This document shows, piece after piece, positions 31,987 to 34,345 of a stretch of DNA of 64,000 nt (positions within the stretch are counted from its first letter, which is position 1; each line of letters starts with the position of its first letter). The notes below the pieces were generated by a model. That model did no database searches. It was not told where the DNA came from and saw nothing but the letters and a program-made list of their open reading frames with translations. The translations under genes and the position numbers were made by a program. The DNA is from Escherichia coli (lineage in GTDB: Bacteria > Pseudomonadota > Gammaproteobacteria > Enterobacterales > Enterobacteriaceae): NCBI RefSeq assembly GCF_003334305.1, contig NZ_QOWS01000002.1; one strand, given 5' to 3'.

Positions 31987-32052
31987 TTATCCCAGATTAT
32001 TGGCAGCAATATGCCAGGCCATATCACTATTGCGGATTTGAATATGTTTCAT
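31987..32052 (-). CDS. ymjD: 21-codon ORF between ycjY and ymjC (ymjD-like)
   Basis: Reverse-strand ATG at 32050-32052 (overlapping the ycjY stop by 1 nt) through stop at 31987-31989, encoding MKHIQIRNSDMAWHIAANNLG; I recall a tiny annotated ymjD at this position in K-12 but cannot verify. Confidence 0.4.
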   Translation of the reverse strand: MKHIQIRNSDMAWHIAANNLG

Positions 32053-32972
32053 TACAGAGTTTCCTCAAAGAACGGAGCTAATACTGAAATTGCTTCAGCC
32101 ACATAGGCTTTGCCGTCATAAAGATCCATATGGTTTGCGCCTTCAACAATGTGATAGCGTTTATCCTGGCTTGATGCCCGATCGTACAGGTCGTCACTCA
32201 TCCATTTGCTCCCTGCCTGGCTGCCCGCCACAATCTGCATCGGCTGAGTCAGGTACACTTCCGCCATATGGTAAGCATCATAGGTAATAATCTGGTTAAG
32301 GCTGCGCAAAGTAGCGTAACCCGGTGCTGTTGGATACTGCGCGCGAGGGGTGTGGTAATACTCCCAGGCCTGACGCAGTTCTTCGTTCGGCGCATCGGAC
32401 TCCTTCATTGGTGCCAGTGGCATAACGGCATATTCTCCGCTGCTAATATCGCTGGTTCGGGCGTTTGAACCCGCTTCAACGTATGGCAGGGCATCAATAG
32501 ATTTCACATTGTTTTCCCAACCATTACGGAACATCGAACCAATATTGACCGCACTAACGGTACCGATGGCCTTGATGCGGCGATCCTGAATTGCAGCATT
32601 GGCTGTATATCCTGCACCGGCACAAATTCCCATCGCACCAATTCGGGTATTGTCGACATAAGAAAGCGTTGTCAGGTAATCAATCACGGCACTGATGTCT
32701 TCAGTACGAATGTATGGGTTTTCTAACTGACGCGGCTCGCCGCCACTTTCACCTTGATAAGATGCGTCATAAGCAATAGTGACAAATCCCTTTTCCGCCA
32801 GTTTTTTGGCATAGGTTCCGGCCGTTTGTTCTTTAACGCCCCCACCTGGGTGAGATACCACAATTGCCTGATACTGACGGGTTTCATCAAATTTTGGAGG
32901 GAAATAGATCACTGCAGACAAAGAGATGGTTGGATTATTGCTGTTAGTGAAGCTGACTTTATTATTCATCAT
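32052..32972 (-). CDS. ycjY: alpha/beta-hydrolase fold protein
   Basis: Track ORF 32052..32984; start tentatively at the ATG giving MMNNKVSF... (306 aa); serine-hydrolase nucleophile elbow GICAG. Start could be 12 nt further upstream. Confidence 0.85.
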   Translation of the reverse strand: MMNNKVSFTNSNNPTISLSAVIYFPPKFDETRQYQAIVVSHPGGGVKEQTAGTYAKKLAEKGFVTIAYDASYQGESGGEPRQLENPYIRTEDISAVIDYLTTLSYVDNTRIGAMGICAGAGYTANAAIQDRRIKAIGTVSAVNIGSMFRNGWENNVKSIDALPYVEAGSNARTSDISSGEYAVMPLAPMKESDAPNEELRQAWEYYHTPRAQYPTAPGYATLRSLNQIITYDAYHMAEVYLTQPMQIVAGSQAGSKWMSDDLYDRASSQDKRYHIVEGANHMDLYDGKAYVAEAISVLAPFFEETL

Positions 32973-33042
32973 TCCGTTCCTCATGGAGTTGTCGGTTCGT
33001 TTTAACGGTTGGTGATATCACTATAGATATTGATCATTAAGT

Positions 33043-33085
33043 TGATTAGACCCAAAATCATGATTAGACCTATCATTTAAATGAT
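33043..33085. promoter_or_regulatory. candidate PgrR (LysR-type) operator in the ycjY/pgrR divergent promoter
   Basis: Direct repeat TGATTAGACC at 33043-33052 and 33061-33070, followed by the perfect 14-bp palindrome ATCATTTAAATGAT at 33072-33085, 25 bp upstream of the pgrR ATG. Confidence 0.4.
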
Positions 33086-33109
33086 TAATAGATTGCATGG
33101 AGATACTGA

Positions 33110-34009
33110 ATGAAGCGTGAAGAAATCGCTGATCTGATGGCGTTTGTCGTCGTTGCAGAGGAGCGTAGCTTCACTCGTGCAGCAGCCCGCCTGAGCATGG
33201 CGCAGTCAGCTTTAAGCCAGATAGTGCGTCGTATAGAAGAACGATTGGGATTGCGGCTTCTGACGCGAACCACGCGCAGCGTTGTTCCAACTGAAGCGGG
33301 CGAGCATCTTTTGTCTGTTCTTGGCCCTATGTTGCATGACATAGATTCAGCCCTGGCATCCCTGAGCGAGCTGCAGAACCGCCCATCCGGGACAATACGT
33401 ATTACTACTGTAGAACATGCAGCAAAAACGATATTGTTACCAGCAATGCGCACATTCCTGAAATCGCATCCTGAAATTGATATTCAGCTCACCATTGATT
33501 ATGGTTTGACCGATGTCGTTTCTGAACGTTTTGATGCAGGCGTCCGTCTGGGTGGGGAGATGGATAAAGATATGATCGCCATTCGAATCGGGCCAGATAT
33601 ACCAATGGCTATTGTTGGCTCACCGGATTATTTTTCTCGCCGAAGTGTTCCAACGTCAGTGTCACAATTAATAGATCATCAGGCAATTAATTTGTATCTT
33701 CCCACATCGGGTACAGCAAATCGCTGGAGATTAATACGCGGTGGACGTGAAGTTCGTGTTCGCATGGAAGGTCAGCTTTTACTGAATACGATAGACCTGA
33801 TCATTGATGCTGCAATTGATGGGCATGGATTGGCGTATCTACCTTATGATCAGGTTGAGCGGGCTATTAAAGAAAAAAAACTGATACGTGTTTTGGATAA
33901 ATTCACACCAGATTTACCCGGTTATCACCTGTACTATCCACACCGTCGACATGCTGGCTCGGCATTCTCATTATTTATAGATAGGCTGAAGTATAAAGGT
34001 GCTGTTTAG
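33110..34009 (+). CDS. pgrR: LysR-family transcriptional regulator
   Basis: 299-aa ORF with N-terminal LysR HTH (FTRAAARLSMAQSALSQ). Confidence 0.9.
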   Translation: MKREEIADLMAFVVVAEERSFTRAAARLSMAQSALSQIVRRIEERLGLRLLTRTTRSVVPTEAGEHLLSVLGPMLHDIDSALASLSELQNRPSGTIRITTVEHAAKTILLPAMRTFLKSHPEIDIQLTIDYGLTDVVSERFDAGVRLGGEMDKDMIAIRIGPDIPMAIVGSPDYFSRRSVPTSVSQLIDHQAINLYLPTSGTANRWRLIRGGREVRVRMEGQLLLNTIDLIIDAAIDGHGLAYLPYDQVERAIKEKKLIRVLDKFTPDLPGYHLYYPHRRHAGSAFSLFIDRLKYKGAV

Positions 34010-34345
34010 CACTACTTGCTGATACATTAATTTAATTTCTCTCTTAACGTATTCTCAGTTCCTTTCAACGTTTTGGTTATTTTTTATTCTTCGTACAATG
34101 GCGACAGATGCTGATTATGATACCGAAAACTGGTTTGAACGTGCGAAGCCTGAACGTAGTGTTCGGTGTTCTATGTGCTTTACCGCATTTTGGCGTCGAT
34201 TATTTACACTAAATCTGATTTAATATATTGATACATAAAACATTTTATGCTTCCTGTGTCACTTTTTTGATGGAAGTTGTTTGCATTTCTTTAAGGCGAA
34301 ACAAATAATTACGCATCAATTTTAATGTCGGTTAGAGGGAAACTT

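Follow-up and report, generated by a model that had tools for sequence, protein, structure and literature searches.

The spacer between ycjY and the divergently transcribed regulator gene pgrR of E. coli contains two exact copies of a 10-bp sequence followed by a perfect 14-bp palindrome. This arrangement raises the question of whether these motifs constitute the operator of the LysR-type regulator PgrR, or whether they serve the promoters of the two genes, another DNA-binding protein or the pgrR transcript. As argued below, the repeats and the palindrome are most likely the binding sites by which PgrR shuts off both its own gene and the ycjY operon.

The ycjY/pgrR locus

The analyzed window, i.e. 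the whole 64-kb stretch of DNA, is E. coli chromosome and is colinear with that of MG1655 at the ycjY/pgrR locus (the NC_000913.3 coordinate equals the window coordinate plus 1,358,881). An earlier note on this DNA, made from the sequence alone, had placed the motifs between a LysR-type regulator gene and ycjY, and both gene identities are borne out by the RefSeq annotation (Table 1). pgrR, on the plus strand, is a LysR-family gene transcribed divergently from its target on the minus strand. Its product carries the Pfam domains HTH_1 (PF00126) at the N-terminus and LysR_substrate (PF03466) at the C-terminus, and both the NCBIfam and the PDB searches with PgrR returned LysR-family matches. No NCBIfam equivalog was found for PgrR, the best match, YafC, scoring far under its cut-off. 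The length of 125 bp that had been given for the spacer holds when ycjY starts at the ATG of the longest ORF (32984), while the RefSeq start (32972) gives 137 bp up to the pgrR ATG (33110). The spacer was found in 5223 of 5426 complete E. coli genomes, in 4383 of them with at least 99% identity.

The PgrR (YcjZ) regulon was reportedly described by Shimada, Yamazaki and Ishihama in 2013 (Genes Cells 18:123) and is curated in RegulonDB and EcoCyc. The DAP-seq data mentioned below are reportedly those of Baumgart et al. (2021). The protein, a repressor of the LysR family once named YcjZ, was identified by genomic SELEX, and its curated regulon comprises ycjY-ymjDC-mpaA, ycjG and ycjXF-tyrR (PMC5934670, PMC4797297, PMC6094552, PMC5210515). 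At the level of the region, the ycjY/ycjZ spacer is itself a gSELEX target of PgrR (PMC5934670). RegulonDB lists ycjY-ymjDC-mpaA as repressed by PgrR, in agreement with the earlier note. The PgrR DAP-seq enrichment at the pgrR promoter was 5632-fold, of the same order as that of LacI at lacZYA (4413) (PMC10505187, Supplementary Data 6). In the same study, pgrR was shown to be negatively autoregulated by PPTP-seq, which was confirmed with a tunable-TF strain. Knock-down of pgrR by CRISPRi increased the activity of the pgrR promoter (log2 0.97, significant in glucose), and that of the ycjY promoter weakly and non-significantly (log2 0.60, 0.28 and 0.34) (PMC10505187).

Table 1. Genes, motifs and predicted promoters of the ycjY/pgrR region (window coordinates).
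Feature	Position	Strand	Remarks
ycjY	32052..32972	-	Alpha/beta (dienelactone-hydrolase-type) hydrolase; RefSeq annotation
ycjY-ymjD-ymjC-mpaA		-	ycjY is the first gene; divergent to pgrR
Conserved regulatory block	33020..33089	.	Holds both dyads, the repeats and the predicted promoters
Predicted sigma-70 promoter of ycjY, TAATCA-17-TATAGT	33020..33048	-	Best PWM score; predicted start ~33013
Box 1, imperfect dyad ATCATTAAGTTGAT	33033..33046	.	Proposed second, ABS-like PgrR site
Direct repeat copy 1, TGATTAGACC	33043..33052	+	Exact match
Predicted sigma-70 promoter of pgrR, TAGACC-18-TATCAT	33047..33076	+	Ranked first by consensus scan and PWM scan; predicted start ~33083
Direct repeat copy 2, TGATTAGACC	33061..33070	+	Exact match; candidate proximal ABS half-site
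Box 2, perfect 14-bp palindrome ATCATTTAAATGAT (ATC-N8-GAT)	33072..33085	.	Proposed primary PgrR recognition site (RBS)
pgrR (ycjZ)	33110..34009	+	LysR-type regulator, 299 aa; RefSeq annotation of identical E. coli DNA

The direct repeat and the palindrome

The two copies of TGATTAGACC are 18 bp apart from start to start, leaving a gap of 8 bp, and the palindrome ATCATTTAAATGAT, which is its own reverse complement, begins one base after copy 2. The arrangement at 33043-33085 is therefore present as the earlier note had described it. When the 125-bp spacer was shuffled 20,000 times with its dinucleotides preserved, a perfect palindrome of at least 14 bp occurred with P = 1.4% and an exact direct repeat of at least 10 bp within 40 bp with P = 0.64%, the two occurring jointly with P = 0.015% (~1.5e-4). 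Across the 64-kb window, five 14-bp palindromes were observed versus about four expected (estimated as 64,000/4^7). A palindrome of this length is thus not rare by itself, and the observation rests on its combination with the repeat and on its location.

The palindrome had also been said to fit the T-N11-A dyad of LysR-type regulators, which is not the case. Since its length is even, its symmetric T/A pairs are separated by N10, N4, N2 or N0, and T-N11-A pairs are found in the spacer at the expected number (13 observed versus 12.7 expected). It is therefore not a T-N11-A LTTR box; its core, in E. coli as well as in the homologues described below, is ATC-N8-GAT. The half-site centers of this dyad (T-N10-A) are 9 bp apart, below the classical 15-bp LysR box.

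Conservation among enterobacteria

A scan of a genome collection with PgrR provided orthologues of 84-88% identity from Citrobacter, Kluyvera, Pseudocitrobacter, Shimwellia, Serratia and a MAG, together with further matches in Escherichia sp. (98%) and in a gammaproteobacterial MAG (58%). A first protein search with PgrR had returned only relatives at least 87% identical.

When 11 enterobacterial spacers were aligned, 50 of the 70 columns of the block at 33020-33089 were invariant. The rest of the spacer had 6 invariant columns out of 55, including none of the 20 between the end of the block and the pgrR ATG. In the same comparison, only 2 of 101 four-fold degenerate sites in pgrR were invariant. 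These sites show 28-38% identity to E. coli and are saturated, which indicates that the block is under strong purifying selection.

Thirteen of the 14 columns of the palindrome are invariant in the 11 orthologues, the remaining one differing by a single base in one sequence. Among the enteric orthologues, 8 of the 10 columns of repeat copy 1 are invariant, as are 5 of the 10 columns of copy 2, where three more are nearly so. Outside Escherichia, copy 2 reads TGATTGGACT, TGATTGGTCT or CGATAGGACC and the two copies agree at 7-8 of 10 positions; at 33066, every other enteric genus has G in place of the A of E. coli. The exact 10/10 repeat is thus lineage-specific, and the description of two exact copies applies to Escherichia but not to the other enteric genera. 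Within E. coli, the SNPs of three sampled variant strains are located at 33004, 33054, 33059 and 33096, none of them in the dyads or the repeat copies; one strain carries a 299-bp deletion (32764-33062).

A second dyad and three TGATTA half-sites

A repeat search related a segment upstream of the palindrome (hereafter Box 2) to the palindrome itself. Compared with ATCAT-N4-ATGAT, this segment, Box 1, deviates at one position, and its center is 39 bp away from that of Box 2. With at most one mismatch, the ATCAT-N4-ATGAT pattern was found five times in the 64 kb versus 2.65 times expected, and two of the five matches are in this spacer. In most other enteric genera Box 1 reads ATCATTAAGATGAT or ATTATTAAGATGAT, the former without the mismatch. 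The candidate architecture proposed in the earlier note, repeat plus palindrome, thus consists of real elements but missed this second dyad.

The repeat and the dyads are interlocked. Copy 1 consists of the right arm of Box 1 plus TAGACC and comprises a conserved GATTAG element, 21 nt upstream of the TATCA of the palindrome core. Copy 2 overlaps a 10-bp palindrome, AATCATGATT (33057-66). TGATTA occurs three times in the same orientation, with starts at 33043, 33061 and 33082, i.e. with spacings of 18 and 21 bp. Both Box 1 and the middle element differ between genera in their left arms. Altogether the proposed operator covers about 53 bp (33033-33085). Upstream of ycjG and mppA, which are reported PgrR targets within the window, neither ATCAT-N4-ATGAT (at most one mismatch) nor ATGATTRGAC was found.

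Predicted promoters within the same block

The predicted pgrR promoter (Table 1) scores highest in the PWM scan of E. coli and of 8 of the 10 other enteric orthologues, and ranks second in one more; the second-ranked prediction for pgrR is TTGATC(33030)-17-CAAAAT. An alternative predicted pgrR start is near 33065. For ycjY, the predicted -35 (TAATCA) is at 33048..33043 and the predicted -10 (TATAGT) at 33025..33020, the latter corresponding to an ACTATAG block that is invariant in 11 orthologues. Both predicted -35 hexamers overlap in repeat copy 1, TAATCA on the minus strand and TAGACC at 33047-52, and copy 2 is located within the spacer of the predicted pgrR promoter. The center of the palindrome is at -65.5 from the predicted ycjY start and at -4.5 from the predicted pgrR start. 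Relative to the predicted ycjY start, Box 1 is centered at about -26.5 and the middle element at about -48.5. In 9 of the 11 enteric spacers and 7 of the 9 distant spacers described below, the dyad center is at -64.5 or -65.5 from the best or second-best predicted promoter of the hydrolase strand.

An earlier prediction gave the same pgrR hexamers (TAGACC-18-TATCAT) and a different pair for ycjY (ATGATA-19-TCTAAT), and the ycjY/pgrR spacer is among the sites bound by the RpoD holoenzyme alone (PMC3946193). In another study, RpoE and RpoH holoenzyme peaks were reported at the spacer and a sigma-E promoter was claimed for both pgrR and ycjY (PMC5493296). The spacer was read by eye for a GGAACTT-like -35 located about 16 nt upstream of a TCTGA/TCAAA-like -10. 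It contains no GGAAC-like -35 at the right distance and no convincing -35/-10 pair, and the sigma-E promoter was rejected as a candidate. A TCTAA-like -10 appears twice in the minus-strand sequence GGTCTAATCA, and the sole GGAAC of the region (32975-81, minus strand) is the Shine-Dalgarno region of ycjY. The TSS supplements for Shigella M90T gave no match for this locus, either by gene name or by sequence.

The repeats cannot be regarded as operator alone, since they fall on the best predicted -35 hexamers of both promoters. It could then be proposed that the motifs serve mainly as core elements (-35 and -10 hexamers and their spacing) of two divergent promoters that overlap, that recognition by RNA polymerase accounts for their conservation, and that PgrR binds elsewhere in the spacer, or loosely. 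TAGACC, present in both repeat copies, and TATCAT, the left arm of the palindrome, make up the top-scoring sigma-70 promoter, the minus strand of copy 1 provides the best -35 for ycjY (TAATCA), and the RpoD, RpoE and RpoH holoenzyme sites are in keeping with this proposal. The hexamers are, however, poor matches, yet their conservation is far stricter than promoter function requires. All predicted hexamers are located upstream of the invariant stretch AAATGATTAAT (33079-89), so that promoter function alone is no full explanation, and the dyad symmetry likewise falls outside any hexamer. Moreover, the DAP-seq signal at the pgrR promoter requires a strong specific site, for which the block is the sole conserved candidate. 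Promoter elements as the main function of the motifs are therefore unlikely. As the operator model includes both promoters, this proposal is compatible with it and is partly true.

The candidate PgrR operator of the earlier note is supported in part. The spacer is bound by PgrR in gSELEX and DAP-seq, pgrR is autorepressed, the palindrome is near-invariant and its core is conserved family-wide, although the repeats also overlap predicted -35 hexamers.

The proposed operator core in distant homologues

A second set of sequences comprised nine more distant homologues of Alpha- and Gammaproteobacteria (57-64% identity to PgrR), whose named sources include Agrobacterium, Bradyrhizobium, Hyphomonas, Sphingopyxis, Acuticoccus and Candidatus Thiodiazotropha. 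All nine face a divergent gene of the YcjY-type dienelactone-hydrolase family across a spacer of 111-168 bp. YcjY is unusually conserved, with 74-83% identity across the classes versus the 57-64% of the regulator. In the genomes examined, mpaA, ycjG and mppA flank the ycjY/pgrR pair in Escherichia only.

The final 75 nt of the distant spacers align nearly gap-free to the enteric block, with the consensus A.taTAg...tt......t.a...gAttAg...c..Aaaa.TG.tTG.ac.TATcA.T.a..TGAT.AATg and the aligned register GAT(T/A)AG-N21-TATCA-N6-TGAT(A/T)A. The five enteric sequences share the GAT(T/A)AG-N21-TATCA spacing with four of the nine distant ones (L020, L023, L024 and L026), while L025 has GACTAG in the register of GAT(T/A)AG. 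A C(C/T)TATC-N8-GAT(A/G)A dyad is present at the homologous place in six of the nine, and in L020 two ATC-N8-GAT dyads are exactly 39 bp apart, like Box 1 and Box 2 of E. coli. The distant spacers also contain a TGCATGAGCC-like sequence at the position of repeat copy 2 and a TATAG/CTAGA-like element in the register of the ycjY -10. The hydrolase -10, the GATTAG element and the ATC-N8-GAT dyad thus share one register from Escherichia to the Alphaproteobacteria.

In the distant homologues an extended Shine-Dalgarno sequence and the start codon fall on the right arm of the dyad (GAGGTGATAAATG), whose conservation there is therefore ambiguous and could be translational. In the enteric palindrome the right arm precedes the start codon by 24-29 nt and is invariant although it lacks Shine-Dalgarno character. 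The palindrome TTGTTAATTAACAA of L010 was considered as a co-varying operator and rejected: it sits at the Box 1-equivalent position and hence gives no evidence of covariation. The homologous RBS position of L010 reads ATT-N8-GAT.

These comparisons bear on whether a different protein, such as H-NS or another regulator binding AT-rich DNA, reads the motifs, PgrR not being their main reader. The 125-bp spacer has a GC content of 33%, knock-down of hns raises the activity of the ycjY promoter (log2 0.88, with ChIP-exo support; PMC10505187, Data 6), and the ATCAT/ATGAT units are, in our own reading, loosely similar to Fur-type hexamers. The dyad nevertheless accompanies a PgrR-type gene, always in one register, in Gammaproteobacteria as well as Alphaproteobacteria, which is what would be expected of a cognate operator rather than of the site of a host-specific global regulator, and which makes another binder of AT-rich DNA quite improbable. 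In addition, PgrR binding at the spacer is very strong in vitro, and Data 6 of PMC10505187 flags no response of the pgrR promoter to Fur or another specific regulator as direct.

Possible RNA-level elements and chance

The palindrome might also act in the RNA, either as a leader hairpin or through a 10-codon upstream ORF that begins at the ATG within the palindrome (33081) and ends in an ATGA overlapping the start of pgrR. The palindrome is part of the pgrR leader if the transcript begins upstream of 33072, and the stop codon of the upstream ORF overlaps the pgrR ATG. The ATG within the palindrome is in frame with pgrR in the Klebsiella/Citrobacter group, where gene callers often choose it and thus annotate 309-aa forms. 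The predicted leader fold, however, is no better than that of shuffled sequences (-2.1 kcal/mol, z = +1.24), and no credible Rfam match was found, the one match at E <= 1 being a chance one far below the gathering score. The stretch from the palindrome to the pgrR ATG varies in both sequence and length, and the frame relation of the upstream ORF varies between genera. A function in the RNA is thus very unlikely.

Finally, that the motifs are functionless chance features of AT-rich intergenic DNA, for which the near-chance rate of 14-bp palindromes in the window could be invoked, is extremely improbable given the joint shuffle probability, and is refuted by a block that is near-invariant next to saturated synonymous sites. 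The feature is real and functional, chance is excluded, and its kind is ordinary.

A probable composite operator for PgrR

Taken together, these features suggest that 33043-33085 is probably the core of a composite LysR-type operator interleaved with two back-to-back predicted promoters. In the textbook LysR layout, an RBS near -65 overlaps the promoter of the regulator gene and an ABS is located near -35. From the register of the elements and the predicted promoters we infer the following working scheme, in which the bases touched by PgrR, both start sites, the switching between sites and the effector are all provisional.

Of the two DNA-binding dimers in a PgrR tetramer, one would occupy the palindrome as its high-affinity RBS. 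The palindrome would lie about 65 bp upstream of the predicted ycjY start and atop the -10/+1 region of the predicted pgrR promoter, so that its occupancy is proposed to repress pgrR. The second dimer would reach one of the weaker upstream sites of the TGATTA type, either the distal Box 1 or the middle half-site in repeat copy 2. With the distal contact, Box 1 being over the -35 and the spacer of the predicted ycjY promoter, RNA polymerase would be blocked at ycjY. A putative effector may shift the contact to the proximal site and thereby relieve repression, by analogy with the 'sliding dimer' model. The exact direct repeat would then be a by-product of overlapping elements. Copy 1 would combine the right arm of Box 1, the ancient GATTAG and the two -35 hexamers, while copy 2 would be a third half-site whose perfect match, in Escherichia only, probably arose by happenstance.

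Comparison with known LysR-type systems

The pgrR spacer resembles the classical LTTR operators (BenM/CatM, CbnR, AtzR and OxyR) in having the regulator gene divergent to its target. Judged from the predicted start, it would also have in common with them a strong dyad some 65 bp upstream of the target and overlapping the regulator promoter, weaker, putative related sites that extend to the -35 of the target, and a total extent of about 53 bp. The classical box is a 15-bp T-N11-A sequence whereas the pgrR dyad has an even length, ATC-N8-GAT (T-N10-A), and PgrR, unlike the regulators of those systems, has been reported solely as a repressor. Negative autoregulation is another common property, and in the case of pgrR it is experimental (PMC10505187). 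The spacer thus matches the RBS/ABS paradigm of the LysR family in gene layout, regulator binding and autoregulation, and in position through the predicted starts only.

Among solved structures, the closest LysR relatives of PgrR are 3mz1 (a putative regulator), AphB of Vibrio cholerae (3szp/3t1b) and CrgA of Neisseria meningitidis (3hhg). They have the full-length LysR architecture, as does PgrR, and with E-values of 1e-33 to 1e-29 are distant relatives only. Their operators are of the T-N11-A type and differ in sequence and spacing from the PgrR dyad. To our knowledge, no PgrR-DNA complex has been solved.

The facts on PgrR at the level of the region were already present in the literature and databases. 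The regulon of Shimada 2013, RegulonDB and EcoCyc concerns the same protein, the same spacer and the same direction of regulation (repression of ycjY-ymjDC-mpaA, gSELEX at ycjY/ycjZ), and autoregulation was added later by PPTP-seq (PMC10505187). This work adds the reading of the spacer as two dyads, the lineage-specific nature of the exact repeat and a family-wide register tied to YcjY.

Meaning for PgrR and YcjY

The shared register and the constant presence of a YcjY-type gene lead us to propose, tentatively, that the operator belongs to an ancient module of a YcjY-type hydrolase and a PgrR-type regulator, and not to a peptidoglycan-recycling regulon. PgrR might then primarily sense the substrate or product of YcjY and control YcjY, and mpaA would have become linked to it late, in Escherichia.

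For a regulator known at this spacer from genome-wide screens, the analysis provides a working model at the level of bases. It names the exact bases to mutate, i.e. the palindrome arms, Box 1 and repeat copy 2, and corrects the T-N11-A assumption for the PgrR dyad. The arrangement is otherwise a textbook LysR one in the best-studied bacterium. The conserved target suggested for PgrR is the uncharacterized hydrolase YcjY, which could guide the search for both the effector of PgrR and the substrate of YcjY.

The ycjY side of the spacer

The predicted start site of ycjY carries a 10-bp palindrome, GTGATATCAC, built from the same TGATA/TATCA half-sites as the proposed PgrR operator, in everted order. 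It is present in Escherichia and in one Serratia locus (L013), is imperfect in two further loci (L008 and L009), and is absent in the Citrobacter/Kluyvera group. The translation start of ycjY is unsettled, with three candidate ATG codons, and ribosome profiling with tetracycline placed the start at a position that differs from the 2006 and 2014 annotations alike (PMC4909307). In RefSeq, no ymjC or ymjD gene stands between ycjY and mpaA, and the region is annotated as a NAD-dependent dehydratase pseudogene fragment, which suggests that the ycjY-mpaA operon is composite.

Sequence features in and around the ycjY/pgrR spacer (window coordinates)
Feature	Position	Remark
Palindrome GTGATATCAC, 10 bp	33012-33021	At predicted ycjY start site, adjoining invariant ACTATAG
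ORF MINRLHGDTE, 10 codons	33081-33113	Opened by ATG within the palindrome of the proposed PgrR site
Candidate ycjY start ATGs	32984, 32972, 32969	32972 is the RefSeq start
Dehydratase pseudogene fragment (ymjC/ymjD region)	31799-31981	Between ycjY and mpaA
Deletion in E. coli ET358	32764-33062	299 bp
SNP in two E. coli strains	33054	A to T
ycjY/pgrR spacer	32985-33109	Holoenzyme gSELEX peaks
ycjY to pgrR	32052-34009	Compared with nine distant loci

A short ORF ahead of pgrR

The TGA stop codon of the short ORF MINRLHGDTE overlaps the ATG of pgrR (ATGA). In the Klebsiella/Citrobacter group, the ATG within the 14-bp palindrome shares the reading frame of pgrR, and the protein is called at 309 aa, 10 residues longer, in many database entries.

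Variation among E. coli strains

Through its deletion, E. coli ET358 (L019, NZ_CP100962.1) has lost the 5' portion of ycjY together with the predicted promoter of this gene, the second dyad (Box 1) and copy 1 of the direct repeat. The 14-bp palindrome of the proposed PgrR site and pgrR are intact in this strain, as is repeat copy 2 except for its first two bases. The SNP is shared by E. coli O157:H7 strain 9234 (L017) and ETEC1701 (L016), the latter with a pgrR annotated as frameshifted. It falls in CAAAAT, the -10 element of the pgrR promoter candidate ranked second. All the other genera compared show no variation at this position.

Other reported regulators

Holoenzyme gSELEX peaks that were called strong have been reported in the spacer for RpoE (17.2) and RpoH (4.4), in a study that refers to pgrR and ycjY as 'known RpoE-dependent promoters' (PMC5493296). 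Inspection of the spacer by eye revealed no promoter of the GGAACTT-N16-TCTGA type. A CRP ChIP site of ETEC, CGTGAACCGGGTCACA, has been assigned to ycjZ/mppA (PMC4287617); this exact 16-mer was not seen in the pgrR-mppA spacer of the window (34150-34160 region) when its sequence was inspected.

The hydrolase-regulator pair and its possible mobility

A PgrR-type gene is divergent to the YcjY hydrolase gene in every one of the nine distant loci (L010 and L020 to L027). Between E. coli and these Alpha- or other Gammaproteobacteria, the hydrolase is better conserved (74-83% identity) than its regulator (57-64%). Among the loci compared, it is only in Escherichia that the pair has mpaA, ycjG and mppA as neighbors, and in most of the others a second, paralogous hydrolase is found downstream in their place. 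Spacer matches in the E. coli genome collection were on plasmids at 6 of 5227 places, a Klebsiella variicola plasmid carries an annotated PgrR homologue (ca. 87% identity, protein database), and the Sphingopyxis copy (L023) adjoins an IS110-family transposase. The hydrolase and its regulator may form a mobile pair.
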